Shown here piece after piece: positions 15,890 to 39,712 of a stretch of DNA of 64,000 nt (positions are counted from its first letter, which is position 1; every line of letters starts with the position of its first letter). The position numbers were made by a program, and so were the translations under genes. The DNA lies in NCBI GenBank assembly GCA_022824225.1, contig JAJEAH010000028.1, positions 65,766 through 129,765 of the forward strand, written 5' to 3'. This stretch comes from Chloroflexota bacterium (GTDB lineage: Bacteria; Chloroflexota; UBA11872; VXOZ01). The notes under the pieces were generated by a model. The model made no database searches. It had not been told where the DNA came from and saw nothing but the letters and a program-made list of their open reading frames with translations.

Positions 15890-16034
15890 TGACTTGCCCC
15901 CAATTGCTCCTTGCGACGCTCTGTTCGGTCTCAGTATAGATGAGTTGTGACTGCCCAGCTTGCAGGTAGAAATAGAGAAAGGTACAGTCTAGGTGGGCGT
16001 GTTACACGTTTCACAAAGGTTAAGGAGCACACGA

Positions 16035-17398
16035 TGAAGGAAAAAATTCTGCGGCGGACCTTCCTCGGCGGCGCTGGCGCCACCGCGGCGGGCGCGCTGT
16101 TCGTAGCTTGCGGCCAGGCCGCCCCCATGGAAACGGCTGAGGCGCCGGCAGAGGAAGAAGCGCCGCAAGAAGAGGAAGCACAACCGGCCGCGGCGGAAGC
16201 CGTCGAGCTGGAAGTGTGGACGACCGCGCGCTGGGACCTTTCAACGGGCTTGGGCTTGGAGGTCAAGCAGGAAATCGAGGCCCTGGTAGAGGGCCTCACC
16301 GTCAAGGACCAGATTCCTGAAGGCAACCGCTTCACCATCCTGATCGCGGCGCAAGCGGCCGGCACCTCGCCTGACATCGGCCAGGTGGGCGTGTGGCAGA
16401 ACCAGCAGGTGGCGGCCGGCGGCATCGTCGACAGCCTGGAGCAGTACTACGCCCAATCGCCGGTCATCAATAAGGATGACATCTGGCCGTCGCTGCGCAT
16501 CGACATGGACCACAAGGGCCAGGTGTGGAGCATGCCCTTTGGCCCGGACGTGCGCTTCTTCTACATCCACGACAATCTCTACCTGGACGCGGGCCTCGAT
16601 CCGGAGACCCCGCCGGAAACGTGGACGGACCTGGAGGACGTGATTTCCAAGTCATTCAAGGGCGGCAATACCATCGAGCAGGTGGCCTGGGGCCCGTTGT
16701 GGGCCAACCGCCACGTCTGGATGGTGCCCATGTGGCAGCTTGGCGGCGAGAACATCAATGAAGACCGCACCAAGATCACGCTCAATACCGAGGAAGGCCG
16801 CGAGGGCATGGCGTGGCTGAAGAAGGTGCACGACATGCAGGGCGGCTACGACGCGTTGCAGCAGTTCAAGGGCGACGAGAACGCCCGTGCCCACTTCTAT
16901 GCCAGCCGGTTGGCGAACCTCTATGACACCGGCTCGATCCGGTTTGAGAGCATCGCCCAGGAAGCGCCGGACCTCGAGTATCACTGGGGTCACTGGCCCA
17001 AGCCCGCCGACGGCTTCAACCGCACCTACGGCGGTTGCCACACGTGGGTGATGCCCGTGGGCGCCACGCATAAAGCTGAGGCGTGGACGTTCATGGAGCA
17101 CTTTGGCGTTGATGACGTCAACATCCGCTGGGCCAAGCACTTCGACCGCCTCCCCATTCGCGTGGACACGTCGTACAGTGAGGCGTACCACGGCGGCGAT
17201 CCGTTCGTTATCCACCAAGTTGACGTAATGGAAGGCCGGCGCTTTGTGGTCTCGGCCCCCGGCGCCAACGAGATGCTCGGCATCATGAGCGGCGGCGTGC
17301 CGGATATGCTCACCGGCAAGACCACCATCGAGGAAGGCTTGCGGCTCACCGAGGCGCAGGCGCAGACCGTGCTCGACGAGTGGCTGGCGCGTGAGTAA
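16035..17398 (+). CDS. ABC transporter substrate-binding protein (family 1, carbohydrate/oligosaccharide type), lipoprotein
   Basis: Start at the ATG preceded by AAGGAG. Tat-like/lipoprotein leader MKEKILRRTFLGGAGATAAGALFVACGQ, an Ala/Glu/Pro linker, then a family-1 solute-binding-protein fold. Confidence 0.85.
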
Positions 17399-17595
17399 GG
17401 CAGTACGCTAAGCGGTCTCGCGCAGGCGTTGCGGCGCAGGCGCGTCCGCTCTGACGGTAGCAAGGGAGCATCCAGTACTTCGCCGTGCGGTGGGAGTGCT
17501 GGGTGCTCCGTGATTCTTTTATACGGCATGTGGAAAGAGCCGCTAGCCGGGCGCGATCAAGTCAGCACACACGAGATGTGGTGAGGAGTGAAGCC

Positions 17596-19146
17596 ATGAG
17601 CGCTATGGAATTCGACCGTAACTTGATCCGGCTGCCGCTGGACTACAAGGGCACGCCGGAACTGGCGGAGATCCGCGTGACTGTGCCCAGCATCGTGCCG
17701 CCGGACGTTCAGGGCGGAGAGTTCAAAATCGGCCTGGAGTTGCGCGACCAATGGGGCTTTCACCTGCCTAAGCAGAGCGCCCGCCTGGAACTCTCTATGG
17801 AAGGGGCGACCGGCGAAGTACCCGCAGAAGTGCCCATGCTGCCGGAGTATGACAGCCACTACGCCGTACAAGGCCGCGTCACCGAAAAGGACCGGGTCTT
17901 TCGCGTCCGGGCGCGCGACCGCGAGACCGGCATAGAGGCGCTTAGCAATCCCGCCTGGGCGCCCGGTTTCATGTACCGGGGCGATCACAAGCTCTATTGG
18001 GGCGACCTGCACTGTCACCGCTTGGAAAACCCCAGCCGCAAGCGCACAGATCCGCTCCTGTGGAGCTATGGGCCCGCTACCGTGGATGAGGTCTATCGCT
18101 TCGCCCGCGACGTGGTGAACTTGGACTTCACGGCGCTCACCGACCACGATTACGCCCTGAGCACCGACGAGTGGCGCGAGATGCAAGAGGGCGCGGAGTT
18201 CTATAACCAGCCTGAACGGTTTGTAACACTGCTTGGCTACGAGTGGTCGTGGAATCGCGGGCCGGACGCCGACTGCGGCCACCGCAACGTGATCTTCCGC
18301 CACGGCGACATGCCGCTCATTTCCAGCAATTGGAAGGGGTCCAACACGCCCCAAGACCTCTTCAACATCTTTCGCCGCCTTTCCCGCACGGGTAGGGACA
18401 TTCTCTCGATTCCCCATCACCCGGCGCGCCTGGGGAACCGCATTTGGCACAACTGGGAATCCATGGACCCGGAGTTCGAGCGCCTCATGGAGGTCTATAG
18501 TCACTGGGGCAGCAGCGAGCACGAGGGCGAGCCCTACCCGCTCAAGAGCAGAAACGAGAGCACGCAGTGGGACCACCCCCAAGCGGAGTATCCGCCCTAT
18601 GAGGCCACGGGGCACTTTCTGCAGGACGGGCTGCGCCAGGGCTTTCGCTTTGGGTTCGTGGGCGGCAGCGAAAGCCACGACGGCCGCGCTACGAGCAGCG
18701 TGCAGATTGCCCACCTGCCCATAAAGGTGACAACGTTCAACCACCATGCCGGCATGACGGGTGTGTGGGCCCGCCGCCGCGAGCGCGACACGGTCTTCAG
18801 TTCGCTCTGGCAACGCCGCGCCATCGGCACCACCGGCCAGCGCATCTTGCTCGATTTCGACGTGGACAACCAGCCCATGGGCGAAATTATCAGTGTGCAG
18901 ACGCCGCCCAAGCAGATGCGCGTGCGCGTCCATGGCACGGCGCCGCTTGCAAGAGTGGTGGTGGTCAAGAACAATCAGGACTGGCACGTGGTGGAGACGC
19001 CGGGCTGGGAGTGCGCCTTTACGTTGGATGAGATCGAGATGCCCCAAGACCGCGCCGACTGGTACTACGTGCGTGTAACGCAGGAAGACGGCGAAATGGC
19101 GTGGTCGAGTCCGATCTGGATCGAAGACGCGCGGAGAGTCTTTTAG
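17596..19146 (+). CDS. PHP-like / DUF3604-family putative metal-dependent hydrolase, paralog 1 (intact HxH motif)
   Basis: Motifs YWGDLHCH, TDHDY, GYEWSW, IPHHP, GGSESHDG, AIGTTGQRI. The C-terminal beta-rich domain ends in WSSPIWIE. Start chosen at an internal ATG after GGTGAGGAGTGAAGCC. Confidence 0.65.
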   Translation: MSAMEFDRNLIRLPLDYKGTPELAEIRVTVPSIVPPDVQGGEFKIGLELRDQWGFHLPKQSARLELSMEGATGEVPAEVPMLPEYDSHYAVQGRVTEKDRVFRVRARDRETGIEALSNPAWAPGFMYRGDHKLYWGDLHCHRLENPSRKRTDPLLWSYGPATVDEVYRFARDVVNLDFTALTDHDYALSTDEWREMQEGAEFYNQPERFVTLLGYEWSWNRGPDADCGHRNVIFRHGDMPLISSNWKGSNTPQDLFNIFRRLSRTGRDILSIPHHPARLGNRIWHNWESMDPEFERLMEVYSHWGSSEHEGEPYPLKSRNESTQWDHPQAEYPPYEATGHFLQDGLRQGFRFGFVGGSESHDGRATSSVQIAHLPIKVTTFNHHAGMTGVWARRRERDTVFSSLWQRRAIGTTGQRILLDFDVDNQPMGEIISVQTPPKQMRVRVHGTAPLARVVVVKNNQDWHVVETPGWECAFTLDEIEMPQDRADWYYVRVTQEDGEMAWSSPIWIEDARRVF

Positions 19147-19269
19147 TCCATTGACGCGGCGGAGTGCGCGCGCCCCGCGACTGCCAGCGGCGTGGCAACT
19201 CAATTCGTCACTCCTGTGGCAACCCAGTCGCCATTCCCTTAGCAACTGAGTCCGTCATTCCCGTGAAAA

Positions 19270-19430
19270 CGGGAATCCATCCTCTCCGTGTTTAGCGTGC
19301 CTGTGTGCTCTCTAGCATGGAGACGCAATCCTGCGTAGGGGCGGTTCGCGAACTGCCCCTACGCGGAATTTGCGATGGCAGGCATGGTTGCGCGTGGGAA
19401 CATTGGGGCGCGAACCGCCCCTACAGCGCG
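19270..19430. repeat. REP-like palindromic elements: the hairpin gtcattcccgtgaaaacgggaatc, and a 16-bp inverted repeat gtaggggcggttcgcg...cgcgaaccgcccctac
   Basis: Exact reverse-complement pairs. The same two hairpin families recur at 24775-24845, 26468-26492 and 30640-30690. Confidence 0.75.
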
Positions 19431-19533
19431 CAATGGACAAAAGCGCCCTGCCGCACGCTGTGATACGATACCGCAGGGCATAGTGCCAAATGCCTGGCAG
19501 TTCAAGCGGTGAAACGAAAGGTGGCGGCAAACT

Positions 19534-21348
19534 ATGGCTGCGAGCGCCAACGGACGATTTGAGGTCATTGCTGAGGGGCCGTTGCGGGTCGGGGAGACGG
19601 TGGCGTTGCAACTTCACTACACGCCGCCAAGCGGCGGACTGCACACCGGCGGCAACCTGTGGATCTTCTACGATATTCGTCAATTCGGCGACCGCAGGCA
19701 CGCGTTTGAGGCCTCAGGCGGCATCATCGTCAATGGTCCAGCGGGGACAGTCTGGGAGTCCGAGGCGCTCGTCAACGGCGGCACGGTGCGGACGTTCGAC
19801 GTTCACTCTCCGGCGCCTGAATTCCTCCACGCCGTGCACGTGAAGCTCGCAAAGGGCTCAGTGGCGGAAAACCAGAGTGTCGAGGTGCAATTACGCACTG
19901 TGGCCGAGGGCTTTCTGCTGCCGGTCAACGCCATCGACGCCTTTCGTTTCTGGCTGGTGGAAGACCCGCGGGGCGAACTCACGCTCTACCATCCCGACCG
20001 CGACAAGTACCACTACTTCCTGCCGCGCGAGGCGGAACTTTCAATACTGGAGAGCAACCCGCTCACCATCAGCGCCGCCGAGCCGGCCGCGCTGCAGGTG
20101 ACGACGCCGTCCTATTCATCGGGGCAGGCGCTGACACGGGTGGTCGTCACCGATAGATACGGCAATCCCGTTCGTGATGCGGCAGGGGCGGTCACCCTGC
20201 GTACCGGCAGCGGCGAGACAACTGCTGCGCTCAACTCATTCAGCACGGAAGACACAGTACCGGTGCAGGGCCCTGCCGATCGTGTAACGGCGGCGTATGG
20301 GGACATCGAGGCCGTGAGCAATCCGGTGCGGGTCGATGCGGATACGTCCCCGTATACCCTGTATTGGGGCGACCCCCACGGCATGCTCTTCAACCAGCGC
20401 CCCATTGTCGAGCACTTCGCCTGGGGCAAGGATGTGAACGACCTGGATTTTGCGGGCGGCCAGCTCTTCTCGTATAGCATTTGCATCGAGGAAATTTGGG
20501 ACGAACTGCAGGACGCGTGGCGGCAGTATGACTTGCCGGGCGAGTTCGTCGCGTTGCCGTCGGCGGAGTTCGCCACCGGGCCCGACGGCAGTCACCGTCA
20601 CGGCTTCTTCCCCAAGCCGGAGGGCGAGCCGCCGGTCTTCTGTGAAGACCGTCCCGCCGCCAACGATCCCAAGCTCCACGCGCGGTATCACCCCGACACC
20701 GTCTATTGCAACGACTATCAAGAATTCTACCGGGAGATGAAACGCCGGGGCGCGCTCATTCACGGCCACTTTCATACGCATTTCTACGTGCAGGAACACC
20801 TGGCTGAGATCTATCAGAAGCAGCAAACCGACGGGTTCACTGAGGAAGAGAAGATCAACCAGTTCTTGATGCGGGGCGTGAAGCTCGGCATCGTCAGCGG
20901 CAGCGATACCCACGACAACCGCCCCGCCAATCCCTACAAGGAACCGGGGCCGTCAGGGCCGGCGGGACTGACCGCCGTGTGGGCCGAACGGCTCGACCGG
21001 CCCACGCTCTTCGATGCGCTCTTCAACCGGCGCTGCTACGCCACCACCGGCGTGCGCATCATCGTGGACTTTCGTGTGAACGGCGCGTGGGTGGGATCAA
21101 CGGTGCAGGCCGATAGTTTCGCGTTCACGGCGGACGTGGTCGGCACGGCGGACATCGAGCAAATTGACCTGGTGGTGAACGGCGACACAGCCAGAAGTTA
21201 CACACCTGATCAACAGCACGTGCAATTGGAAGATGAGGTGCCGCTGCGGTTCTCTCCGGTCAGCGCCAATTACTGCTACCTCCGCGTGCGGCAGAGAGAC
21301 GGCAATCGCGCGTGGACGAGTCCAATCTGGCTGGAGCCTATGGCGTAG
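19534..21348 (+). CDS. PHP-like / DUF3604-family protein, paralog 2 (HxH degenerated to H-G-M; longer N-terminal beta domain)
   Basis: Shares YWGDPHGM, HGHFHTHFY, GIVSGSDTHDN, ATTGVRI, WTSPIWLE with paralog 1. About 75% identical to paralog 3. Confidence 0.65.
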   Translation: MAASANGRFEVIAEGPLRVGETVALQLHYTPPSGGLHTGGNLWIFYDIRQFGDRRHAFEASGGIIVNGPAGTVWESEALVNGGTVRTFDVHSPAPEFLHAVHVKLAKGSVAENQSVEVQLRTVAEGFLLPVNAIDAFRFWLVEDPRGELTLYHPDRDKYHYFLPREAELSILESNPLTISAAEPAALQVTTPSYSSGQALTRVVVTDRYGNPVRDAAGAVTLRTGSGETTAALNSFSTEDTVPVQGPADRVTAAYGDIEAVSNPVRVDADTSPYTLYWGDPHGMLFNQRPIVEHFAWGKDVNDLDFAGGQLFSYSICIEEIWDELQDAWRQYDLPGEFVALPSAEFATGPDGSHRHGFFPKPEGEPPVFCEDRPAANDPKLHARYHPDTVYCNDYQEFYREMKRRGALIHGHFHTHFYVQEHLAEIYQKQQTDGFTEEEKINQFLMRGVKLGIVSGSDTHDNRPANPYKEPGPSGPAGLTAVWAERLDRPTLFDALFNRRCYATTGVRIIVDFRVNGAWVGSTVQADSFAFTADVVGTADIEQIDLVVNGDTARSYTPDQQHVQLEDEVPLRFSPVSANYCYLRVRQRDGNRAWTSPIWLEPMA

Positions 21349-21486
21349 TCGAGTCCAATTGAGCTGAGGACACCTGCCGTGTTTTCCCGTGCGCGGACTG
21401 CCAAGAGGCATATTGTGCTCCGAGTCCTAAGTACAGTGGGACTGTATACTGGTCGCGTCTAGCTGTAGAGCCGAGGAGCATTGGCC

Positions 21487-23304
21487 ATGTCCGCGGAAGT
21501 CAATGGGCGTTTCTGGGTCAGTGTAGAAGGCCCGTTGCGCGTTGCTGAAACGGTCACGTTGGAGTTGCACTACATGCCCCCGGCAGGCGGCCTGCAGACG
21601 GGGGGAAATCTCTGGTTCTGCTTCGACATTCGCCAGCTTGACGAGTGGGTGCTCGACTTTGACCGGCCGGACGCCATTGCCGTGCAAGGTCCGGCGGAGA
21701 CGGTCTGGGAAGCCGAGGCGCTCATCGATGGCGGCGTGGTGCGGACGTTCGATATCCATGCGCCCGTGCCGGAATTTCTGCACGTGGTGCACGTGAAGTG
21801 CGTGGCCGGCGCAGTGACGGCGGCGGAGCGAGTTACGGTGCAACTGCGCACGGCTCCCGGCGGCTTCCTGCTTCCCCGCAACGCCATCGATGCTTTCCGT
21901 TTCTGGCTGGTCGAGGACCCGTCTGGCGAGCTTACTTTCTACCACCCGGAACGGGACAAGCACCACTACTTTCTGCCGCGTGACGCGGAACTCTCCTTGC
22001 TGGAGAGCAATCCGCTCGCAATCAAAGAGGCCGAACCGGCGGCGCTGCAGGTAACCTCGCCGTCTCACGCCGCGGGGCACGCGGCCACACGCGTCGTCGT
22101 CACCGATCGGTTTGGCAATCCCGTGCGCGCTGCCCAGGGCGAGGTGACGCTGCGTTCCGGCAATGGCGAGACAACGGTTGCGCTCAGTTCGTTTAGCGCC
22201 GCAGGGACCGTACCCATGCGGGGGCCCGTAGACCGCGTCACGGCGTCGTACCGGGGCGTCGAAGCCGAAAGCAACCCGGTGCGGGTGGATGAAGAATTGC
22301 CTTGCCTGTCGCTCTATTGGGGCGACCTCCACGGCATGCTCTTCAGCCAACGGCCCATCGAGGATCACTTCGCCTGGGGCAAGGACGTGAACGGTCTTGA
22401 CTTTGCCGGCGGCCAGTTGTTTTCCTACAGCATTTCCATTGCGGAAACGTGGGAGAAACTCCAGAACGCGTGGCAGCGCTATGACTTGCCCGGGGAGTTC
22501 ATTGCGCTGCCCTCGGCGGAGTTCGGCACCACCCCCGACGGCAGTCACCGTCATGCGTTCTTTCCGGAGATTGCGGGACAGCCGCCGGTCTTTTGCGAAG
22601 ATCGACCCGCGGCGCACGATCCCAAATTGCAGGCGCGCTTTCATCCCGATACGGTCTTCTGCAAAGACTACCAGGAGTTCTACCGCGAAATGAAGCGCCG
22701 GGGCGCCCTGATGCACGGTCATTTCCATACGCACTTCTACGTCCAAGAACACCTGGCGGAGATCTTTCAGAAGCAGAGAACGGACGGTGAGGTGGAAGAG
22801 GAGAAGATCAACCAGTACCTGATGCAGGGCGCGAGGCTTGGCTTCGTGAGCGGGAGCGACACCCACGACAGCCGTCCTGCCAATCCCTACCGCGAACCGG
22901 GGCCGCTGACCGGTGTGGCGGGACTTACCGGCGTGTGGGCGGAACGGCTGGACAAACCATCCCTCTTCGACGCGCTCTTCAACCGGCGCTGCTACGCGAC
23001 AAGCGGCGTGCGCATGATCGTCGACTTTCGCGTGAACGACGATTGGATGGGTTCCACGGTGCAAGGCGAACGATTCACGTTTACGGCGGACGTGGTCGGC
23101 ACGGCGGAGATCGAGCGCATCGACCTGGTAGTGAACGGCGATACGGCCCGAAGCTATGCGCCCAGGCAACAACACGCGCATGTGGAAGATGAGGTGCCGC
23201 TGCGGTTTTCGCCCAAGAACGTCCACTATTGCTACCTGCGCGTGCGGCAAGTAGACGGCAATCGCGCGTGGACGAGCCCAGTCTGGTTGGAGCCACATTC
23301 ATAG
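21487..23304 (+). CDS. PHP-like / DUF3604-family protein, paralog 3 (recent tandem duplicate of paralog 2)
   Basis: MSAEVNGRFWV... aligns with paralog 2 (MAASANGRFEV...). A GAGGAG ribosome-binding site lies 8 nt upstream of this ATG. Motifs YWGDLHGM, HGHFHTHFY, GFVSGSDTHDS. Confidence 0.65.
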   Translation: MSAEVNGRFWVSVEGPLRVAETVTLELHYMPPAGGLQTGGNLWFCFDIRQLDEWVLDFDRPDAIAVQGPAETVWEAEALIDGGVVRTFDIHAPVPEFLHVVHVKCVAGAVTAAERVTVQLRTAPGGFLLPRNAIDAFRFWLVEDPSGELTFYHPERDKHHYFLPRDAELSLLESNPLAIKEAEPAALQVTSPSHAAGHAATRVVVTDRFGNPVRAAQGEVTLRSGNGETTVALSSFSAAGTVPMRGPVDRVTASYRGVEAESNPVRVDEELPCLSLYWGDLHGMLFSQRPIEDHFAWGKDVNGLDFAGGQLFSYSISIAETWEKLQNAWQRYDLPGEFIALPSAEFGTTPDGSHRHAFFPEIAGQPPVFCEDRPAAHDPKLQARFHPDTVFCKDYQEFYREMKRRGALMHGHFHTHFYVQEHLAEIFQKQRTDGEVEEEKINQYLMQGARLGFVSGSDTHDSRPANPYREPGPLTGVAGLTGVWAERLDKPSLFDALFNRRCYATSGVRMIVDFRVNDDWMGSTVQGERFTFTADVVGTAEIERIDLVVNGDTARSYAPRQQHAHVEDEVPLRFSPKNVHYCYLRVRQVDGNRAWTSPVWLEPHS

Positions 23305-23574: not shown

Positions 23575-24684
23575 ATGGCTGACTTTGCACGCATAACACA
23601 GTCCATGGCAGAGCAGCGACTGGATGCCCTGGTTACGCTCGGCATGCGGAACTGCGCCTATCTGGCCGGCGCCATCAGCGAGGGGCCGTGGCTCAACGAG
23701 CCGCAGGGGCTCGCGCCCTGGATGACGTGTCTCATTCCGCCGGACCGGTCATTCACGTTTGGCGGCGGGTTACGAGACACGGACATGCCGGCAGACGGGA
23801 TTTCTCCCGATCATACCCGCGCGGCGCGGCTGACGGCGCTGGCAGCGGAGATGCGGCAGCGAGGCGTCGGCAAGGCGCGTGTCGGGGTTGACATGGATTT
23901 TGCCTCGGCGAGCGATCTGCGGAGGCTTGAAGAACTCTTGCCGGATGCTACGTTCGTTTTCGCCGACCTGCTGCTCGCACAAGCACGGGCGTGCAAGACG
24001 CCGCAAGAGCTACAGTGGCTCCGCAAGGCAATAGCCGCCTCCGAGTCTGGGTATCGAGAGATGCTGCGCGAGGTGCGCGTGGGCATTTCCTTTCAAGAGC
24101 TTGTGACCGTATGGGCAAAGGCGGTGCTGGACAACGGGGCCTTGCCCATCAATACTTCACCGGTCTCGTGGATGCTGCCCCACGGCGGCACGAGCCTGCG
24201 CGATCAGCCCGACGCAGTCGTGATTCGCAGTCCCGGCGTTGTGGAAGCGGGGTTGGTGTACCGCGTCGATCTCGCCGCGATCTCCGCCGGTTTCTTTTCC
24301 GATCAGAAGTTTAATTTCTGCGTGGGCGCGCCGCGCAAAGAGAGCTTGGCCGTCTGGCAGGCGCACCGGGAGCGGCAGCTTTTCATGGAAGACTTCGTGC
24401 GTCCGGGCAAGACGAAACGCGAGGTCTTCGAGGCCTGCCAGCGCGAGTTCAAAGACACTGATAAATATGCCTGGTGGATCCACGGCGTGGGCATGGACAA
24501 GCACGAGGAACCGCTGATCGGCAGTCTGCTGCCGTCCGCCGTTGACGTGCGGCCGGAGATCACCTTTGCGGTGAACAACGTGGTCTCGCTAGAGTCCTCG
24601 TGGCTCGAGGAGGACATGTACGTATTGAAGGAGGATGGACTCGAGCGGTTGGGGACAATTCCGCAGGAAGTGGCTATTGTGTGA
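23575..24684 (+). CDS. M24-family metallopeptidase (creatinase / Xaa-Pro peptidase-like; creatinase N-terminal domain plus pita-bread domain)
   Basis: The N-terminal region resembles the creatinase/prolidase N domain. The C-terminal region carries candidate metal ligands (VDLAAIS...SDQ, HGVGMDKHE, LESSWLEE). Confidence 0.7.
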   Translation: MADFARITQSMAEQRLDALVTLGMRNCAYLAGAISEGPWLNEPQGLAPWMTCLIPPDRSFTFGGGLRDTDMPADGISPDHTRAARLTALAAEMRQRGVGKARVGVDMDFASASDLRRLEELLPDATFVFADLLLAQARACKTPQELQWLRKAIAASESGYREMLREVRVGISFQELVTVWAKAVLDNGALPINTSPVSWMLPHGGTSLRDQPDAVVIRSPGVVEAGLVYRVDLAAISAGFFSDQKFNFCVGAPRKESLAVWQAHRERQLFMEDFVRPGKTKREVFEACQREFKDTDKYAWWIHGVGMDKHEEPLIGSLLPSAVDVRPEITFAVNNVVSLESSWLEEDMYVLKEDGLERLGTIPQEVAIV

Positions 24685-24699
24685 GTGTGAAGACTGGAT

Positions 24700-24950
24700 T
24701 CCGGTGCAGGCCGGATTCACCATGCCTCGCTAGACCACATACGAGAGATGAACATGGCGGCTAGCTTCCCAACTGTCACTCCGGCGAAAGCCGGAGTCTA
24801 GGGCGCACGGCGAAGATGGATTCCGGCTTTCGCCGGAATGACAGACTGGCTGCGGTTTATTCTTAGGTCGATCATCATGGTCTTGACGGTCACGCACGAG
24901 AATGTTTGCAGCGGACGCAAGTTGCAAACCTGCGCTACCGGAGCGAAACT
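24700..24950. repeat. Left copy of a ~200-bp repeat flanking the S8-like gene (gtcactccggcgaaagccggagtc ... ttgcaaacctgcgctaccggag)
   Basis: The same two motifs occur in the same order at 26467-26594. The second motif also occurs at 44575-44600. Confidence 0.7.
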
Positions 24951-25071
24951 GCCAAAACCGTCTATTTTTAGAGCAACGGCGCAGACGTTTGGGGGACGAA
25001 TGAGCCCGGAGTGGCGTATACGACTGGTATGACTCGTAGGTCTGGAATCACGTACGGGAAAGGAAAGACCG

Positions 25072-26415
25072 ATGGCAATTACCGAGCAGAAAGAGACCGG
25101 CGTACTGCCGGAGGGCGTGCGGGAGCCGTATGACTGGGCGCTTGATCAGATGCGGGTACGGGAGGCCCATGCCGTTACGCAGGGCAGCCCTGACGTGATT
25201 GTGGCCGTGATCGATCTCGGGTATCGGTTTCACCCCGACCATGAGGGTCACCTGTGGGTAAACCCGCGGCCCACGCGGGGCGACGTGCACGGTTGGGACT
25301 TTGCCGAGGAAGACGCCACGCTCGAGTACGAAGGGTCGCGCGACGATACGGTGTACCATCGCGGGCACCACGCCTTCGTCGTCGGGGAAGTAGCGGCTAC
25401 GGCGCCCAAGTGTCCGATAATGATCCTGCGTGTGGGGTACGAGCCGCACCACCAGAAGAGTTGGCCGCGCGCCGTGCGCTATGCGGTTGACCACGGGGCC
25501 AAGGTGCTCGTGATGCCCCACGGGTACATCACGTTAGACCATACCGATGGCGTGCCCTCATTCTACAAAGGCACCGACTTCAACTATCCCTACGACAATA
25601 TCGGCCTTATCGAGGCGCTGGATTACGCCTATCAATCGGGCTGTTTAGTCATCAAGGGCACGGCGGACAACCGCGGGCGGCGGGTGGCGACCGTGAATGC
25701 CGGTTTGGATAGCGTCTTTGCCGTCGGCTCAACGAACAAACACGGCGTGGCGGCGAACATCGCGGCGTCGGCTGACTATGTGGAGGCGGCTACGCCCGGC
25801 GGGGAACGCAACACGGATGACCCGACCGAATCCATCTGGGGAACCGGCGGCGACCACGACTACATACCTTTCGAGGGCGGTTGCATGGCGTCGGCCTTTG
25901 GCGGCGGCGTGGCGGCACTGGCGTTTTCGCAATATCCGCACCTATCCAATGGCGAAATTCGCCAGATACTGCGCAATACGTCCCAGGGCAGCGGCTGGGA
26001 TCCCCTGCTCGGGCACGGCATCTTCGATGCGTACCGGGCGGTGTCGCTTGCGCCCCAGGAGCTCTCGGCAGGACTGCGCGTCGATAGCACGGCGTCGCAG
26101 GTACGCCGGGAGGACGGAAAACTTGTGGCCGACATCGTTGTAGAAAACACAGGCGTCTTCGATGTATCTCGCATGCTAACGGTTGCGTTCAACGGCGATC
26201 CGAAATCGGCGGCCGACTCAAGCGCTACCCGCGAGCAAGCGAACATTCTCATCCGGCGTCAGATTGGCCACTGCATTGCCTCTGTGCCCGGTTTGGAGCG
26301 GGTGACCGTTTCGCTTGCGCTGGAGGACGAGTCAGAGCCGGATGAGGTCTGGGTGCAGGTCAATGCCCTGGAAGTGGGCAAAGCGGGGGTCTACGACACG
26401 GCGCGGATACGCTAA
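25072..26415 (+). CDS. Subtilase (S8) family homolog without signal peptide; the catalytic Ser position appears occupied by Cys
   Basis: Asp box VAVIDLG, His box HRGHHAFVVGEVAA, and a Ser-box-like GGCMASAFGGGVAALAF that aligns to GTSMAAPHVAGVAAL. No N-terminal signal sequence. Confidence 0.6.
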   Translation: MAITEQKETGVLPEGVREPYDWALDQMRVREAHAVTQGSPDVIVAVIDLGYRFHPDHEGHLWVNPRPTRGDVHGWDFAEEDATLEYEGSRDDTVYHRGHHAFVVGEVAATAPKCPIMILRVGYEPHHQKSWPRAVRYAVDHGAKVLVMPHGYITLDHTDGVPSFYKGTDFNYPYDNIGLIEALDYAYQSGCLVIKGTADNRGRRVATVNAGLDSVFAVGSTNKHGVAANIAASADYVEAATPGGERNTDDPTESIWGTGGDHDYIPFEGGCMASAFGGGVAALAFSQYPHLSNGEIRQILRNTSQGSGWDPLLGHGIFDAYRAVSLAPQELSAGLRVDSTASQVRREDGKLVADIVVENTGVFDVSRMLTVAFNGDPKSAADSSATREQANILIRRQIGHCIASVPGLERVTVSLALEDESEPDEVWVQVNALEVGKAGVYDTARIR

Positions 26416-26464
26416 GTTTGTGAATAGCAAGGCGGTTCAGGGACTCAAAGCTAGTGGGCTCCGG

Positions 26465-26600
26465 TCCGTCACTCCGGCGAAAGCCGGAGTCCAGGGGGTG
26501 TGGGCTGCATGGACTGCTGTCCCGTATCGAGCGCGAGACCGTCTTTGCACAGCCTGATGGCGGCGGGCGCAGGCTGAAAACCTGCGCTACCGGAGTAACA
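26465..26600. repeat. Right copy of the repeat flanking the S8-like gene
   Basis: cgtcactccggcgaaagccggagtcc at 26467-26492; aaacctgcgctaccggag at 26577-26594. Confidence 0.7.
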
Positions 26601-26962
26601 CCGCCAATCCTGGCTATTCCCATGGTATTTGCAGATGCCAGGCAAATCGTTGACAGAGTTGGCAGAGAGTGCGCTAAGTTAGTTTGCATGCGCCCATAGC
26701 ACATGTCATTCCGAACGGAGCGCAGCGGAGTGAGGAATCTAGTGTGCTGGGGCCACAAACTGTGTAAGACACGGCACTAGATTCCGCGAATCCAGTTCGA
26801 CGCTGCGCTCGGAAAGGTATGTACCGTCAAGGCTAGCTGCTAGACTAGAGATCCTGTCAACGGATTGCTCAACATCTACAGTTATGACAGGGAGGATCGG
26901 CATAGCGCCTTCCTGCGTTGTGCTGGCAGAGAACAGGTACTTCAAAGGATGAATGAGGTTCT

Positions 26963-27982
26963 ATGCGCGTTACATCCGTAGACATCGTGCCGTGGAAAGA
27001 TGACGCTACGTTCGTCTATTCGGTGGTATTTGACGAAGGCACCATCGACTGTTTGGCGAATGCGTTTCCCATCGCGCAGCAGTACGAGATTCTGGGCGAC
27101 GTGGCGGTGGTTGCCGGACAACTGGGTGAGAAGCGCCACGTCGAGCGCAGTTCGCTGAACGACTACTTCCACATGGGCCCGGAGCACCTTAAGTTTCTCC
27201 TGTCCCAGGGCTGGAGCGTGAGCAATCACAGCTATTCGCACCCGCCGCTGCGCGACCCCAGTAGTATTGACTACGAACAAGAGATCGTGGAGTCCTACCA
27301 CGTGCTGGAGCGCGCCCTCGGGCAGCCGGTACCGGTCTTCTCCTCGTGGAACAGCTTTGAGGTGTATGACACCGTGCGCGCGTGGGTGGAGCGCACGCCG
27401 GGCTACCTTGCACTCACGCGCGCCTCGAACGACGCCGAACACATTAACGGCCCCGACTTTGATCCCTTCAGCATCTGGCGCAACCGTCTCTGCGAAGACG
27501 ATGAAATCGAGTATCTGCTGCCCTGGCTCTCGCGCCGTGGGTTCGAGCCGGAACGCGTGCAGGGAAAGTGGCTGGTCGACGTCACGCACCTGGTCATGTA
27601 CAAGACGCCGCAGGGGCATAAGTGCATCTCGCCCTATGCGCTGGAGGGACGCTTCGATCAGATGCGCACGCTCTTTGGCGATAGCATGTGGGCAGCAAAC
27701 CCCGATGACGTGGTGCGCTACGCCTACCTGCGCAGGCACTGTACGCCTATTGTCGAGCAGCCTTCGCAAGCGCGGGCGACGATCTCTGTGGAGTTCTCTC
27801 GGTTGCCGCCGCAGACTGCGGAGGGACAGTTGACGTTTGTGCTTGCCTTTGCCGATGACCCCGGTACGGTGGAGGTAAGAGGGCCGGATGGGGCGGTGCA
27901 GACCACGCCCGCCGGCGAACGACGGCTGCGCTTTACGTGCCGGGTGAATCCCGGAGCGGAGCTAGAGGTTACTGCCCGCTAG
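26963..27982 (+). CDS. Polysaccharide deacetylase (NodB-homology / CE4-like) family protein
   Basis: NodB-like motifs (FDEGTIDC...HSYSHPPL). Preferred over the overlapping antisense ORF 26942-27769. Confidence 0.7.
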   Translation: MRVTSVDIVPWKDDATFVYSVVFDEGTIDCLANAFPIAQQYEILGDVAVVAGQLGEKRHVERSSLNDYFHMGPEHLKFLLSQGWSVSNHSYSHPPLRDPSSIDYEQEIVESYHVLERALGQPVPVFSSWNSFEVYDTVRAWVERTPGYLALTRASNDAEHINGPDFDPFSIWRNRLCEDDEIEYLLPWLSRRGFEPERVQGKWLVDVTHLVMYKTPQGHKCISPYALEGRFDQMRTLFGDSMWAANPDDVVRYAYLRRHCTPIVEQPSQARATISVEFSRLPPQTAEGQLTFVLAFADDPGTVEVRGPDGAVQTTPAGERRLRFTCRVNPGAELEVTAR

Positions 27983-29221: not shown

Positions 29222-30361
29222 CTACCAGTCCGTTACCGAGCCGTCATCGCGACGCAGGCGGGCGTGTTCCCAATACTGGTATGAGTAGTCCTCTGCTGCA
29301 GCGAAATCGAGCTCAATGCCGATGCCCGGCACGTCGGCCGGGTAGAGATGTCCGGCTTCCACGCGGCACTGGGTGGGAAAGATGTCCGTCATGGCCGGCG
29401 GCACCATGGAGAGTTCCTGAATGCCGAAGTTGGGTATGGACATGTCGAGTTGCACGCTGGCCGCGGTATTGACCGGTCCCAGCGGGTTATGCAGGGCCGA
29501 GTCGATGTAGTGCACCTCGCTCATGGCGGCAATCTTCTTGCCTTCCGTGATCCCGCCCACCAGGCCGAGATCGGCGCGCATGTAGTCGATCCACTCGTTC
29601 TCGATGAGTTCGCGGAACTGCCACTTGGTGATGAGCTGCTCGCCGGTGGCGATGGGAACGCTGGTCTGCCGGCGCAGGTTGCCAAATGACTGCGGATTCT
29701 CTGAACGAATCGGGTCTTCGATGAAGAAGGGGCGCAGGGGCTCTAGCGCTTTGCAGATCTGTATCGCCCACGTGGGACTGAGGCGCGTGTGCACGTCCAG
29801 GGCAATTTCGATTTCGTCACCCACGGTCTCCCGCACCGCGCGAAACACCTCGATCGTCTTGCGCACGGCCCGCGAGGGTTCCAGGATGTCGCCCGGATCG
29901 GTGGGCAGACCAAACCGCACCACCTCAAAGCCTTCGTCCACACGGGCTTGGGCGGCTTGCGCAAACGATTCCGGGCTGCCGGTGCCGCCGCCAAAGTGGG
30001 CGTAGCAGCGCACCTTTTCGCGGGTCTTGCCCCCGAGCAATTGATAGGTAGGGACCCCGAGGGCCTTGCCGAGCAAGTCCCAAAGGGCGATGTCTAGGGC
30101 CGAAATTGCCGCCGTGAGCACCGGTCCCGCCCGCCAGAAGTTGCCCCGAAAGTGGTCCTGCCAGATGTGCTCGATGCGCGCGGGGTCCTGGCCGATGAGC
30201 AGCGGGCGGTAGTGCTCCACGGCCGCTGCAACGGCTTTGTCTTTGCCGGAACAGCCGGATTCGCCAATGCCGTAGAGGCCGTTCTCTTCGGTTACGGACA
30301 CGAAGGTGTAGTTGCGCGTCCCGTTGTTGACCGTGTGGGTTTGGACATCGCTGATCCTCAT
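29222..30361 (-). CDS. Enolase-superfamily dehydratase, D-mannonate/D-galactonate dehydratase (ManD/GalD) family
   Basis: MRISDVQTHTV... N-terminal capping domain, then barrel-domain metal ligands (ALDVHTRL..., FFIEDPI..., IATGEQL). Confidence 0.8.
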   Translation of the reverse strand: MRISDVQTHTVNNGTRNYTFVSVTEENGLYGIGESGCSGKDKAVAAAVEHYRPLLIGQDPARIEHIWQDHFRGNFWRAGPVLTAAISALDIALWDLLGKALGVPTYQLLGGKTREKVRCYAHFGGGTGSPESFAQAAQARVDEGFEVVRFGLPTDPGDILEPSRAVRKTIEVFRAVRETVGDEIEIALDVHTRLSPTWAIQICKALEPLRPFFIEDPIRSENPQSFGNLRRQTSVPIATGEQLITKWQFRELIENEWIDYMRADLGLVGGITEGKKIAAMSEVHYIDSALHNPLGPVNTAASVQLDMSIPNFGIQELSMVPPAMTDIFPTQCRVEAGHLYPADVPGIGIELDFAAAEDYSYQYWEHARLRRDDGSVTDW

Positions 30362-30419: not shown

Positions 30420-30700
30420 AGCCTCTCGTGCCATGAGGCGGTGACAAGCCCCGCGCTACGGCAAGCAAGTGGCTGACACGTAAGACAGTAGCACAGGTTT
30501 GGAACCTGTGCCCACCGGACCGCAGGGGACAGCGGAGGCAAGGGCGGTCATGGAGAAAACGTCTTGTGCCCGGAGGCGGGGGACAAGCCCCCGCGCTACG
30601 GCAACCAGAAGGGGTCTTTCCGATGAGTGGTTGCGTATGGCCGGTAGGGGCGCTTCGCGAAGCGCCCCTACTTCGCGAAGCGCCCCTACATCTACAATAG
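30420..30700. repeat. Intergenic repeat cluster: two ~60-nt direct repeats ending gacaagcccc(c)gcgctacggcaa, plus a duplicated perfect palindrome aggggcgcttcgcgaagcgcccct
   Basis: atggagaaac...gacaagccccgcgctacggcaa at about 30395-30460 recurs at about 30540-30600. The palindrome occurs twice at 30640-30690. Confidence 0.75.
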
Positions 30701-34249: not shown

Positions 34250-36343
34250 GTGCCCGTGGATTCAGCGCTGCGCGTCGGTGTGGACATAGGGGGCACCTTC
34301 ACCGACCTTGTCTTCATGGATGCCCAGGGCCTGCGCGCGTGGACCAAGGTCTCTTCCACCACTGACGACTTTGCCCAAGGCATCGTGCAGGGCTTTGATG
34401 CCCTCGTCCGCGATACGGGGGCCGCCCATGGGGATATTCGCGAGGTCATTCACGCCACGACCATCGCGACGAACGCCATTTTGGAAGCAAAGGGCGCGCC
34501 CACGGGTCTGATTACGTCCGTGGGCTTCCGCGACGTGTTGGAAATCCGCCGCCTGCGCATGCCGCGCCTCTACGACCTGCATTGGGAACCCCCGCCGCCG
34601 CTGGTGCCGCGAGCGCTGCGGCGCGAGGTGGACGAGCGCATCGACACCCACGGTGAGGTGGTGCGGGAGTTGGATGAAGCGAGTGTGCACGCGGCCCTCG
34701 ACCACCTGCTGAACGCGGGCGTGCGCTCCATCGCCGTGTGCCTCATCAACGCGTACCGCAATGCGGAACACGAAGAGCGGATCGGCGCGCTGCTGCAGGC
34801 CGCGGCCCCGGACGTGTTCGTCTCACTCTCTTCTCGCGTCTTACCCGAAATTCGCGAGTACGAGCGCACGAGCACCACCGTCATCAACGCCTACATCGCT
34901 CCCGTCATGCGCTCGTACCTCCAACGGCTGGACGACGCGTTTGCGGAACGGCAGGTCGGCGCGCCGGTGTACATGATGCAGTCCGGCGGCGGCATGATGG
35001 GGGCTGCCAAGGCGGCGGAACAACCCATCCACGTCATCGAGTCCGGCCCCGCGGCCGGTGTAATGGGCGCACTTTCATTGGCCAACGCTATGGAGGCGGC
35101 CAACGCAATCACGCTGGACATGGGCGGCACCACGGCCAAAGCCTCGGTGATCGAAGACGGCCGCATCACGCGCACGAATGACTACGAGGTAGGCGGCGGC
35201 ATCAGCCTGAGCGCGCGTTTGCAGCGCGGCGCGGGCTATGCGCTGCGGGTGCCCGCCATCGACATAGCTGAGGTCGGCGCCGGCGGTGGCAGCGTCGCGT
35301 GGATCGATCCCGCTGGTGGGCTGCGTGTCGGACCCCATAGCGCCGGCGCCGAACCCGGCCCGGTGTGCTACGCCCAGGGCGGGTCAGAGCCGACGCTCAC
35401 GGACGCCAACGTGGCACTGGGCTACCTGAACCCGACGCACTTCTTGGGCGGTGAATTACCCATAGACGCTGCCCGCGCCCGCGCCACCTTGGAAGAGAAA
35501 CTGGCCGCGCCTCTTGGCCTCAGTGTCGAAGAGGCCGCCCTCGGCATCCATCGCATCGCGGTCTCGCACATGAGCCGCGCCGTGCGGGCGGTCACGGTGG
35601 AACGCGGGCGTTCGCCGGCGGACTTCGTGCTGTTTGCGTTTGGCGGCAGCGGCCCGCTCCATGCCGCCGAAATGGCGCGAGAGCTTGGCGTCCGGCAAGT
35701 CGTCGTGCCGCCGTTTCCGGGTTTGTTTAGCTCCCTCGGTCTCTTGTGTGTCGATGTCTCCCAACACGCCGTGCAGACCGTGCTCCTGCCGCTGGACACA
35801 GTGAGCGAAGAGGAAGTCAACCGGCAGTATGGTGAACTAGAATCTCGCTTGGCGGGCGAGCTTGGCGTTGACGGTGACGTGCGGCAACAGGGAGAGTGGC
35901 AGCGGTTTGCGGACTTGCGCTATGCTGGACAGTCCTTCGAGCTTACGATTCCCTTGCGAGAGTTACGGCCTGAGCAGATGCGCGAGGCCTTCGAGCGCGA
36001 GCACGAACGCACGTATGGGCATAAGGCCCCCGATGATCCCGTGGAGCTTGTGAACCTCCGGGTCGAGGTGACGCTGCCGCGTGAAGGAGCGCACCGTTGG
36101 GGAGGCGCGGCTGCACGGAAGAGCGCGCCGCAAGGTCCGCGAGAACGCCTGGCGTACTTTGGCGCGGCAAGCGGCGAGCGGGCAGCGCCGTTACTGACAC
36201 GGGATGAGCTAGGCACAGCCGCGCGACCCGGCCCGTTAGTCATTGAGGAGTACGACACGACCATCCTGGTACCCCCTGGGTGCAGCGCAAAACGCGATGC
36301 CTGGGATAACGTGGTGATCGATGTGGGGGAGGAACCCGCATGA
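34250..36343 (+). CDS. hyuA: Hydantoinase A / 5-oxoprolinase-like ATP-dependent hydrolase, subunit A
   Basis: N-terminal VGVDIGGTFTDLVF; full-length HyuA-family architecture. Confidence 0.85.
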   Translation: MPVDSALRVGVDIGGTFTDLVFMDAQGLRAWTKVSSTTDDFAQGIVQGFDALVRDTGAAHGDIREVIHATTIATNAILEAKGAPTGLITSVGFRDVLEIRRLRMPRLYDLHWEPPPPLVPRALRREVDERIDTHGEVVRELDEASVHAALDHLLNAGVRSIAVCLINAYRNAEHEERIGALLQAAAPDVFVSLSSRVLPEIREYERTSTTVINAYIAPVMRSYLQRLDDAFAERQVGAPVYMMQSGGGMMGAAKAAEQPIHVIESGPAAGVMGALSLANAMEAANAITLDMGGTTAKASVIEDGRITRTNDYEVGGGISLSARLQRGAGYALRVPAIDIAEVGAGGGSVAWIDPAGGLRVGPHSAGAEPGPVCYAQGGSEPTLTDANVALGYLNPTHFLGGELPIDAARARATLEEKLAAPLGLSVEEAALGIHRIAVSHMSRAVRAVTVERGRSPADFVLFAFGGSGPLHAAEMARELGVRQVVVPPFPGLFSSLGLLCVDVSQHAVQTVLLPLDTVSEEEVNRQYGELESRLAGELGVDGDVRQQGEWQRFADLRYAGQSFELTIPLRELRPEQMREAFEREHERTYGHKAPDDPVELVNLRVEVTLPREGAHRWGGAAARKSAPQGPRERLAYFGAASGERAAPLLTRDELGTAARPGPLVIEEYDTTILVPPGCSAKRDAWDNVVIDVGEEPA

Positions 36344-38395: not shown

Positions 38396-39712
38396 CTAGA
38401 CTTCTGCAGTCGTGAGCGCTGGCAGACGGTCCGCGTTTGCAATCACCTTGCGAAACGCCGCGCCGACCTGCTCTACCCACGCAGGATTGGGGTCAAAGGG
38501 AGTCGTAATCCAAAACGCCGTGTCGTGAATACGTTCGCTGGCGGGCAGATGCCCCCGTTGCCGGCGCAGGCGCGAGTCCGGCGGGAGGTCCTTCCAGGGC
38601 CCGCCCACGTTGTCGAAGCCGTAGTCGGTGAACAGAGGCTCCAGGTGCATCACGCCGTAGCCGTAGGGCGTAATTTCACTCGTCATCTTGACCCCTTCCG
38701 CCACCAGTGCCCGCAGGATGCTGTTGATGGGCGCGCCAATCGTCTTCTCGTCCAGGGTCCCGGCGTAGTGCACCAGCCCGCCGCGCTCGGCCTGGGGATA
38801 CGGCTTCTGGGGATGCACGCCGGGAATGTCGCTCAGCAGGGAGTCGAGCCGGTCGAACCATGCGCGCCGTTTCCCGTTCATCTCCGGCAGCCGCCGGAAC
38901 TGCGCGCGCACCATGCCGATGGCAAGCGGATTGGCGCGGTACTTGACCCCCAGCCCCATGTTGCGCAGGTCGGCAAATTCGTCTGTTGACCAGAGCTTGC
39001 CGCAACGTCCGTACTGCCCCAGCGCCAGCATGCGGTCGTAGAGCGAGTCGTCGTCGGTCACGGCCACACCGGCCTCGATGCCGGTCATGGCCTTGCCTTT
39101 TTGCAGGCTGAAGCAGCCGATGTCGCCAAACGAGCCGACCGGCTTGCCGCGCCACGTCGCACCGTGAGCGTGTGAGGCGTCTTCTATGAGGACGATTCCC
39201 GTTTCGTCCGCGATGTCACGAAATGCGTCCATGTCCGCCGGATTGCCGTAGACGTGGGTGACGACGACGGCGCAGGTGCGGTCGGTGATCTTGCGCCGCA
39301 CGTCATCGGGATCGGCGCAGAAGGTCTCCGGGTCGGCGTCACAGAACACCGGCGTGGCGCCGCAGTGCAGGATGGGACTGATGGTCGCGTGCCACGTGAC
39401 CGAAGGCACGATTACTTCCTTGCCCGCGTGGGCGCCGGCCGCAAAGATGGCCGAGTGCAGCGTGGCGGTGCCGTTGCACATCACCAGGGCGTGTTTCGCG
39501 CCAATGAACTCGCGCCATTCTTTCTCGAACAGGTCAAGCTCGGCGTAGGCATCGCCGAAGTTGTCCATCACGCGCAGCACGTACTCCTTTTCCAAATCGG
39601 TCACGCGCTCCCAACGGTCGTCAATGGGCGCGGTCACCGCTTGCGGACCGCCTTCGATGGCGAGGGCGTCGTTGCCGGTGACTGGGGAAACTGGGCTTAG
39701 CGTCTTTGCCAT
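38396..39712 (-). CDS. DegT/DnrJ/EryC1/StrS-family PLP-dependent aminotransferase (sugar/aminocyclitol type)
   Basis: ALAIEGGPQAV...FSLQKGKAMTG (PLP lysine). Start set at MAKT after GTGAGGA. Confidence 0.8.
   Translation of the reverse strand: MAKTLSPVSPVTGNDALAIEGGPQAVTAPIDDRWERVTDLEKEYVLRVMDNFGDAYAELDLFEKEWREFIGAKHALVMCNGTATLHSAIFAAGAHAGKEVIVPSVTWHATISPILHCGATPVFCDADPETFCADPDDVRRKITDRTCAVVVTHVYGNPADMDAFRDIADETGIVLIEDASHAHGATWRGKPVGSFGDIGCFSLQKGKAMTGIEAGVAVTDDDSLYDRMLALGQYGRCGKLWSTDEFADLRNMGLGVKYRANPLAIGMVRAQFRRLPEMNGKRRAWFDRLDSLLSDIPGVHPQKPYPQAERGGLVHYAGTLDEKTIGAPINSILRALVAEGVKMTSEITPYGYGVMHLEPLFTDYGFDNVGGPWKDLPPDSRLRRQRGHLPASERIHDTAFWITTPFDPNPAWVEQVGAAFRKVIANADRLPALTTAEV

Follow-up and report, generated by a model that had tools for sequence, protein, structure and literature searches.

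The catalytic serine of subtilisin has been replaced by cysteine in the laboratory (S221C, thiol-subtilisin), which gives a protein of low activity that forms a thioester acyl-enzyme, and amines cleave this intermediate more readily than water does (Toplak et al., PMC7921005). In subtiligase, a second substitution (P225A) regains activity by easing the crowding around the bulkier sulfur, for which glycine or alanine makes room, and in peptiligase S221C and P225A were combined on a calcium-independent scaffold from which the calcium-binding loop had been deleted (PMC7921005). Together these changes raise the ratio of synthesis to hydrolysis (PMC7921005). Here we describe a gene, S8C, encoding a 447-aa, apparently cytoplasmic protein with a subtilase fold that carries a cysteine at the nucleophile position. 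The gene lies at 25072-26415 (+ strand, stop codon included) of a 64,000-nt stretch of DNA from a Chloroflexota bacterium (GenBank assembly GCA_022824225.1, contig JAJEAH010000028.1, positions 65,766 to 129,765 of the forward strand); this whole stretch is called the window below. As far as we found, cysteine at position 221 (subtilisin BPN' numbering) had been described only in proteins altered by chemistry or by genetic engineering, and MEROPS clan SB is not known to contain any but serine-type peptidases. We found no description of natural subtilases with a cysteine nucleophile in the open-access literature, so a report elsewhere is possible. The S8C family, with its natural conserved cysteine and second-site changes like those of subtiligase, is apparently undescribed.

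Cysteine at the nucleophile position of S8C

A sequence-only reading of the window had described the protein as an S8 homolog with cysteine in place of the catalytic serine, and had pointed to an Asp box, a His box and a Ser box. All three are present in the translation of the open reading frame (ORF): VAVIDLG at residues 44-50, HRGHHAF at residues 96-102 and the nucleophile box GGCMASAFGGGVAALAF at residues 269-285. The protein matches the Peptidase_S8 profile (PF00082) with 57 bits (cut-off 21.8) over residues 41-316, which cover positions 3-288 of the 288 in the profile, and has the subtilisin alpha/beta fold that marks the peptidase S8 superfamily.

To fix the catalytic register, hhalign was used to compare A1, our alignment of 115 family members, with 31 canonical S8 domains of the Ser type that had been aligned by MAFFT with subtilisin BPN' as the first sequence. 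The BPN' sequence and its numbering agreed with the BPN' chains in the PDB (1-275 matches 1-275). The two alignments matched with a probability of 100 and an E value of 2.7e-70, and the catalytic domain of S8C (residues 17-325, 25120-26046, + strand) was placed opposite BPN' 1-275. Asp48, His99, Asn200 and Cys271 of S8C were equivalent to Asp32, His64, Asn155 and Ser221 of BPN', and Met272, Ser274 and Ala275 were equivalent to Met222, Ser224 and Pro225. A phmmer comparison with PDB sequences likewise aligned GGCMAS of S8C with GTSMAT of thermitase. By both alignments, the cysteine occupies exactly the nucleophile position, as had been claimed. On the + strand, the codons concerned are GAT for Asp48 (25213-25215; invariant in 115 of 115 sequences), CAC for His99, the presumed general base (25366-25368; His in 114 of 115), and TGC for Cys271 (25882-25884; Cys in 121 of 121 sequences of the larger alignment described below).

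Two other assignments were considered and rejected. The serine within MASAF (Ser274) might have been the catalytic residue; it aligns with the noncatalytic Ser224 and is poorly conserved in the family (Ser in 69, Ala in 35 and Cys in 14 of 121 sequences), so the cysteine register stands. Placement of the general base near Asp91-Tyr95, which came from the phmmer alignment to thermitase with low posterior probability, was dropped; hhalign and hmmalign both gave His99 as the equivalent of His64, with the invariant Gly105 opposite Gly70. Thus, in the sense used by MEROPS, Asp48 and His99 of the Asp-His-Ser triad and the oxyanion-hole asparagine (the invariant Asn200) are present, and the nucleophile position is held by cysteine in S8C and 120 homologs.

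The start codon at 25072 is the first in-frame start past the upstream stop in the ORF list and is preceded by a Shine-Dalgarno-like run, GGAAAGGAAAG. The N-terminus, MAITEQKETGVLPEGVREPYDW, contains no hydrophobic stretch, and its first 16 residues are polar. Because the N-terminus is polar and residue 1 of mature BPN' aligns at residue 17, the protein has neither a signal peptide, in agreement with the sequence-only reading, nor an I9-type propeptide. A hydrophobic N-terminus is also absent from 108 of the 115 aligned family members. Residues 335-447 (26074-26412, + strand) form a predicted C-terminal beta-sandwich (Ig-like) domain in which Gln397 and His400 are invariant.

We searched 5.8 billion proteins for homologs and analyzed the best 120 of 216 matches, whose lengths are about 430-490 aa and whose identities to S8C range from 47 to 86%. 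In a MAFFT alignment of these 120 with the S8C query, GGCM was found at the nucleophile in 121 of 121 sequences, Asp48 and Asn200 were invariant, and His99 was present in 119 of 121. When each GTDB species was represented by one genome, 335 loci with a relative were found; of the 80 that were kept, about 50 belong to the S8C family. Among these 80 loci, the closest relatives are metagenome-assembled genomes (MAGs) of Chloroflexota (85-89% aa identity), which points to an uncultured member of this phylum as the source of the window, and family members also occur in Armatimonadota, Verrucomicrobiota, Kiritimatiellia, Lentisphaerota, Planctomycetota, Gemmatimonadota, Spirochaetota, Clostridia, Paceibacterota and one Bathyarchaeota MAG; overall, the retrieved homologs span about 10 phyla. 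Cys271 is therefore an invariant, defining feature of a large multi-phylum family and not an isolated substitution.

When 1.84 billion cluster representatives were ranked by phmmer, a compact family of 30 representatives at E<=1e-30 stood out, followed by remoter Cys-type (GGC) proteins, some of them multidomain proteins of 1,200 aa, and then by the mass of GTS-type subtilases. A rough neighbour-joining tree of 112 representatives placed all 13 Cys-type sequences in one clade of 15, together with one Ser-type and one Gly-type sequence. This grouping implies that cysteine has long been under selection, and the Cys-type state is apparently an old one. The remoter Cys-type sequences (P0136, P0137, P0138, P0140, P0141, P0147, P0154, P0161, P0164 and P0186, and loci L055 and L057) include multidomain proteins of about 600-1,480 aa that retain Pro225 and the calcium loop, and one group that carries Glu in place of Asp32 (AVIE[SEP]G). 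Cysteine and serine can also be seen within otherwise similar motifs, as in P0132 (SGQC) and P0135 (SGQS).

Two further positions of S8C resemble engineered peptiligase. The residue equivalent to Pro225 (Ala275 in S8C, codon at 25894-25896, + strand) is small in 114 of the 115 family members (Gly in 100, Ala in 9 and Ser in 5, with Glu in the remaining one). Moreover, hhalign placed a nine-residue gap after residue 109 exactly opposite Leu75-Gly83 of BPN', which is the loop of calcium site A; the PDB chains of calcium-independent subtilisins and peptiligase have 266 residues, compared with the 275 spanned by the BPN' query. Cys221, a small residue at 225 and deletion of 75-83, the three hallmarks of peptiligase, are thus all found in S8C, and peptiligase, omniligase and 'calcium-independent subtilisin by design' were among the best Foldseek matches in the PDB. 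Since the remoter Cys-type clades keep both Pro225 and the calcium loop, these two changes are specific to the S8C subfamily.

The hhalign comparison also points to a remodelled substrate cleft. Pro149-His150-Gly151 stand in place of Ser125-Leu126-Gly127 and, with an insertion of about 20 residues (154-175), make up an altered substrate-binding segment (25516-25596, + strand); in the family alignment Pro149, His150 and Gly151 are nearly invariant, and Gly167 and Asp169 of the insertion are invariant. The strand matching BPN' 100-104 is shorter by two residues, the 160-163 loop is absent, and Glu156 of the S1 pocket is replaced by Arg201, which follows the invariant oxyanion-hole Asn200 (25669-25674, + strand), is present in 119 of 121 sequences and lies within a conserved D-N-R-G-R-R motif. 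We infer from this remodelling that S8C would not hold an extended polypeptide as canonical subtilases do, and that it may recognize an anionic group.

Gene neighbourhood and proposed function

S8C lies downstream of a solute-binding protein gene (15947-17398), three tandem paralogous genes for DUF3604 (CehA/McbA-type) metallohydrolases (17485-19146, 19534-21348 and 21481-23304; span 17485-23304) and an M24/creatinase-like hydrolase gene (23575-24684). The gene immediately downstream encodes a CE4 (Polysacc_deac_1) deacetylase-like protein (26963-27982), and all of these genes are on the + strand. CE4 is the commonest immediate neighbour of S8C across phyla, and M24 is paired with S8C in both of the paralogous loci found in Chloroflexota. 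The second paralog (about 57% identity; L021-L026) occurs in the same genomes as L006, L012, L014, L015 and L018, and it is again flanked by M24/creatinase-like and SBP_bac_1 genes. Because both loci pair S8C with M24, the two genes appear to have been duplicated together as a functional pair.

To place this arrangement in a wider context, 53 S8C family loci from at least eight phyla were collapsed at 75% identity into 25 groups, and a neighbourhood of 6 kb was surveyed. By approximate count, GFO/IDH/MocA oxidoreductase (GFO) genes were found in 13 of the 25 groups (median distance 2,700 nt), CE4 in 11 (250 nt), DegT aminotransferase in 9 (about 3,200 nt), a URO-D/MtaA-like protein in 9 (174 nt), an AraC regulator in 7 (about 2,500 nt) and DUF3604 in 6 (about 2,700 nt). 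The pattern was checked with independent gene calls and precomputed Pfam matches, which gave the order GFO, CE4, S8C in Armatimonadota and a cluster of AraC, DegT, GFO, S8C, CE4 and URO-D genes in Kiritimatiellia. At L207 the order is GFO, S8C, CE4, and at L210 it is GFO, URO-D, S8C, URO-D; in these loci the stop and start codons of S8C and the neighbouring CE4 or URO-D gene overlap. L208 has AraC, GFO, DUF3604, DAO, DegT, S8C, M14-like, MR_MLE-like and SBP_5 genes in that order. A Chloroflexota ortholog that is 60% identical has PhyH, DAO, DUF3604, DegT, CN_hydrolase, GFO and ABC (ATP-binding cassette) transporter genes as neighbours, and S8C genes often adjoin genes for ABC-transporter binding proteins. 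The picture that emerges is of a regulated cluster of mostly cytoplasmic amide and ester hydrolases together with redox and transaminase enzymes of the amino-sugar type.

The best NCBIfam matches of the neighbours, every one far below its curated cut-off, lie near ArnB/LegC/WecE (NDP-sugar aminotransferases) for DegT, inositol or UDP-GlcNAc dehydrogenases for GFO, MtaA/CmuA methyltransferases for the URO-D-like proteins, N-methyl-amino-acid oxidases for DAO and CehA/McbA for DUF3604. Functional literature on DUF3604 was essentially absent from the open-access literature, with one incidental mention.

Other genes in the region also look catabolic. An MR_MLE enolase-superfamily gene lies at 29222-30361 (- strand) and a hydantoinase A/B (oxoprolinase-type) pair at 34250-38061 (+ strand), and creatininase and Asp/Glu racemase genes are present in the relative L001. 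A second 447-aa ORF, 12 kb downstream of S8C (38396-39739, - strand), was considered as a paralog and rejected, as it encodes a DegT aminotransferase. Two antisense ORFs of 623 aa (21427-23298, - strand) and 562 aa (17557-19245, - strand) wholly overlap the DUF3604 genes and are probably artefacts of high GC content; overlapping antisense ORFs confused the simple ORF caller in several GC-rich loci. In L208 (5373-7029), an IS200-type Y1_Tnp transposase gene interrupts the DegT gene that directly precedes S8C, and the locus ends with another Y1_Tnp gene.

The reading that we prefer, with a probability of roughly 0.7, is that S8C is catalytically active and works through a thiol acyl-enzyme, as a hydrolase or transferase in a conserved small-molecule pathway and not as a general protease. 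As a cytoplasmic S8-fold enzyme, it would use Cys271 as its nucleophile, with the charge-relay and oxyanion machinery of Asp48, His99 and Asn200 intact. The Cys271 thiolate would attack an acyl substrate (amide, ester or thioester) to form a thioester acyl-enzyme, which would then be resolved by water or by an amine. In the S8C family, the change from serine to cysteine is accompanied by glycine or alanine at position 225, loss of the 75-83 loop, loss of the propeptide, rebuilding of the S1-S4 cleft and addition of the Ig-like C-terminal domain. Judging from the conserved cluster and the ABC binding proteins, S8C most likely acts on a small, imported, amino-sugar-like metabolite that is N-acylated or bears a peptide, and not on bulk protein. 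The comparisons establish the homology, the residue equivalences, the invariance across the family, the synteny and the dispersal of the repeats; from them we infer catalytic competence, acyl-enzyme chemistry and substrate class.

Several points weigh against this interpretation. According to PMC7921005 and PMC6642262, hydrolases in which serine is simply exchanged for cysteine are usually severely impaired in amide hydrolysis, so amidase activity of S8C cannot be assumed. The geometry of the triad is derived from alignment. The family is not uniformly cytoplasmic, as 7 of the 115 members have a signal-peptide-like N-terminus. The neighbourhood counts are probably underestimates, the ORF caller having misread GC-rich loci (for example, CE4 in L013 and L085). 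Finally, with all of their NCBIfam matches so far below the cut-offs, the neighbours can be assigned to no pathway, which suggests that the pathway is not a known one.

A possible but doubtful alternative is that S8C is a natural subtiligase, which physiologically would not hydrolyse its substrate but pass the acyl group on to an amine (by transpeptidation, by forming an amide bond or by N-acyl transfer). By analogy with the engineered enzymes, one ancient switch from serine to cysteine would have been followed in the S8C subfamily by independent arrival at P225G/A and the 75-83 deletion, with acyl transfer acting on amino-sugar or peptide metabolites; this extended scenario is about equally doubtful. 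All three peptiligase positions and the Foldseek matches described above are in keeping with it, as is the higher synthesis to hydrolysis ratio that such changes confer (PMC7921005), and the clustered DegT aminotransferase would supply a free amine as a possible acyl acceptor. However, the conserved cluster contains no ATP-dependent activating enzyme or obvious ester or thioester donor, and its AraC regulators, ABC binding proteins, CE4, DUF3604, M24 and amidohydrolases point to catabolism. The remoter Cys-type relatives with Pro225 and the calcium loop further indicate that cysteine alone implies no ligase chemistry.

It is less probable still, and on balance unlikely, that S8C is an ordinary intracellular endopeptidase for protein turnover, a thiol counterpart of the Bacillus intracellular subtilisin proteases (ISPs), with an incidental neighbourhood. 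The subtilase fold, the intact Asp/His/Asn set and the lack of a signal peptide would suit such a role, and two intracellular S8 enzymes, 4zoq and 7xr8, were strong structural matches. Against this, the strands that bind peptide are altered (the PHG segment, the shorter 100-104 strand, the 20-aa insertion and Arg201 in place of Glu156), and co-location across phyla with sugar- and amine-modifying enzymes, in some cases with overlapping reading frames, would be unexpected for a housekeeping protease. S221C subtilisin is also a very poor amidase (PMC7921005).

Like S8C, the C. difficile pseudoproteases CspA and CspC have an S8 fold without the catalytic serine (PMC7200643), and S8C might similarly be a dead pseudo-protease that serves as a binding or regulatory subunit. 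We consider this quite improbable. The triads of CspA and CspC are degenerate, whereas the other catalytic residues of S8C and the replacing cysteine are conserved: Asp48, Asn200 and Cys271 are invariant, His99 nearly so, and the residue at 225 stays small, down to 47% identity. Pseudoenzymes lose constraint on their catalytic residues, unlike S8C, and the single clade that holds all 13 Cys-type sequences implies long-term selection for cysteine.

Hairpin repeats in the flanking spacers

The sequence-only reading had also reported direct repeats of about 200 bp on both sides of S8C. The same pair of motifs is indeed present in the same order in both flanks, but the length was overstated, as the flanks share just two short modules of 29 nt (97% identity) and 64 nt (77% identity). 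Motif 1, the 24-mer GTCACTCCGGCGAAAGCCGGAGTC, occurs exactly at 24775 and 26468 (0 expected by chance), with an inverted copy containing two mismatches at 24819. Motif 2, the 18-mer AAACCTGCGCTACCGGAG, occurs exactly at 24926 and 26578 (0.05 expected by chance). The spacers between the modules differ in content as well as in length (151 versus 110 nt, start to start).

Each motif can form a hairpin. Motif 1 has a GAAA loop on a GC stem of 7 bp, set within a conserved frame, GTCAYTCC...GGARTCCAG. Upstream of S8C, its + strand copy (24775-24798) and the inverted copy (24819-24842) are predicted to form one long stem (24773-24844; -56.7 kcal/mol, z -8.7), and the motif-2 block (24903-24966, + strand) contains the hairpin GCAAGTTGCAAACCTGCG followed by CTACCGGAG. 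Downstream, the motif-1 hairpin is CTCCGGC-GAAA-GCCGGAG (26461-26496, + strand), and the motif-2 block (26555-26618, + strand) contains GCGCAGG-CTGAAAA-CCTGCGC followed by TACCGGAG. Single motif-1 and motif-2 hairpins folded with z scores of about -2.6. No Rfam family matched the hairpins when the window was scanned at gathering thresholds.

We scanned the loci of relatives for motif 1 with up to four mismatches and motif 2 with up to three. The downstream composite element was aligned at the same site in L001, L006 and L009, and the scan put both motifs there in L010, L011, L014, L015 and L017 as well; this shared position suggests that the downstream element is ancestral at its site. The upstream spacer is variable, L001 having the inverted motif-1 copy only. 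L016 has motif 2 and no motif 1 under the scan, and L013 has neither, its S8C-CE4 spacer carrying another stem variant (CCCGCG). At the orthologous downstream site of L006, three motif-2 blocks follow one another in tandem, spaced 46 nt apart (11504, 11550 and 11596).

Both motifs were found at many other intergenic sites within the 21-kb loci of the relatives. Elsewhere in the window there is a motif-1-like copy at 19254-19277, and there are motif-2-like copies at 30488-30511 (- strand) and 44575-44598 (+ strand), which lie some 4 kb and 18 kb beyond S8C. At least 120 unrelated metagenome contigs (L087-L206), ranging from 37 to 72% GC, contain an exact copy of the motif-1 24-mer, and S8C and motif 2 are absent from all of these. 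The check for widespread elements thus came out against the repeat part of the sequence-only reading.

The wider hairpin family shows further variation. Intergenic hairpins with the frame (C)GTCAYTCC-[variable GC stem-loop]-GGARTCCAG are found across widely differing organisms, and the consensus of the metagenome motif-1 copies reaches only CGTCAC...GTCCAG. Two hairpins with the motif-1 frame lie in the S8C-CE4 spacer of Kiritimatiellia, and sites with the frame were seen at 26705-26745 of the window, at 11444-11470 and 11522-11549 of L036, and at 11377-11450 of L013. Another repeat of the type 'GC hairpin + GCTAC', GCGGGGGACAAGCCCCCGCGCTAC, occurs twice in opposite orientation in the window (30576-30599, + strand; 44180-44203, - strand), and the hairpin family there, which resembles repetitive extragenic palindromic (REP) elements, appears to share a CTAC tail.

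Like REP elements and miniature inverted-repeat transposable elements (MITEs), the flanking motifs are short, GC-rich, palindromic hairpins of predicted stability that occur in many copies at unrelated intergenic sites and in both orientations; their stems vary, and they are amplified in tandem locally. The motif-1 hairpin differs from classical species-specific REPs in its broader range, being identical across contigs that differ in GC content and habitat. No associated transposase was identified, although no search aimed at a RAYT/IS200-type transposase was made and Y1_Tnp was seen in L208 only. From these data we conclude that the flanking motifs are generic dispersed REP/MITE-like hairpins that turn over in spacers and are not specific to the gene.

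The proposal that the repeats mark a cassette-like insertion or a REP-mediated rearrangement did not hold up. In its favor, each side of S8C carries the two motifs in the same order, near-exact motif 1 is confined to this site within the window, and the upstream composite copy is absent from L001, the closest relative examined in detail. However, both motifs occur elsewhere without S8C, and S8C lies between M24 and CE4 in 14 of 14 close relatives with differing hairpin content, a sample of loci found through the S8C protein in which empty sites could not be seen. The adjacency of S8C to CE4 or GFO is also found in other phyla and would therefore predate the repeats. Together with the orthologous downstream element and the dispersal of the motifs, these observations make delivery or rearrangement of S8C as a mobile cassette through the flanking repeats very improbable.

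Comparison with known systems

If the conserved cysteine family is what it appears to be, its presence in many phyla would show that evolution took the route later taken by engineers; this natural route to Cys221 would need the same second-site fixes as engineering (a small residue at 225 and loss of the calcium loop), and the enzymes would be used inside cells, within a metabolic cluster. The family is a test case for the interchange of serine and cysteine nucleophiles in clan SB and offers ready-made, propeptide-independent scaffolds for the engineering of peptide ligases. Were the doubtful natural-subtiligase alternative true, these would be natural ligase scaffolds free of both propeptide and calcium dependence, and clan SB would become a mixed Ser/Cys clan.

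The finding also corrects the automatic annotation of the homologs, which NCBI names 'S8 family serine peptidase'. No curated NCBIfam model fits S8C, the best match being mycosin with 97.5 bits against a cut-off of 279. Membership in a defence system was considered and rejected, as no family among the PADLOC anti-phage defence models matched S8C. The search for other Cys-variant homologs that the sequence-only reading had suggested carried its observation well beyond a one-off substitution, GGCM being found in all 120 that we examined.

Compared with the S8 peptidases of the subtilisin and thermitase type (PF00082; MEROPS S8, clan SB), S8C has cysteine at the nucleophile position and lacks the propeptide, the signal peptide and the 75-83 loop of calcium site A. 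Glycine or alanine replaces Pro225, the Ser125-Gly127 strand and the S1 pocket are rebuilt, and a C-terminal Ig-like domain is added. The intracellular S8 enzymes 7xr8 and 4zoq (LicP, a lanthipeptide protease entered in the PDB under the molecule name 'intracellular serine protease') share with S8C a subtilase fold without a secretion signal, but they use serine, whereas S8C has cysteine and sits in a conserved metabolic gene cluster. The closest parallel is with engineered subtiligase, peptiligase and omniligase, in which the same three positions were changed in the same direction. In contrast to these ligases, S8C is a natural protein, sharing only about 21-23% identity with them when aligned by Foldseek, with its own substrate cleft, an extra domain and a genomic context that suggests catabolism.

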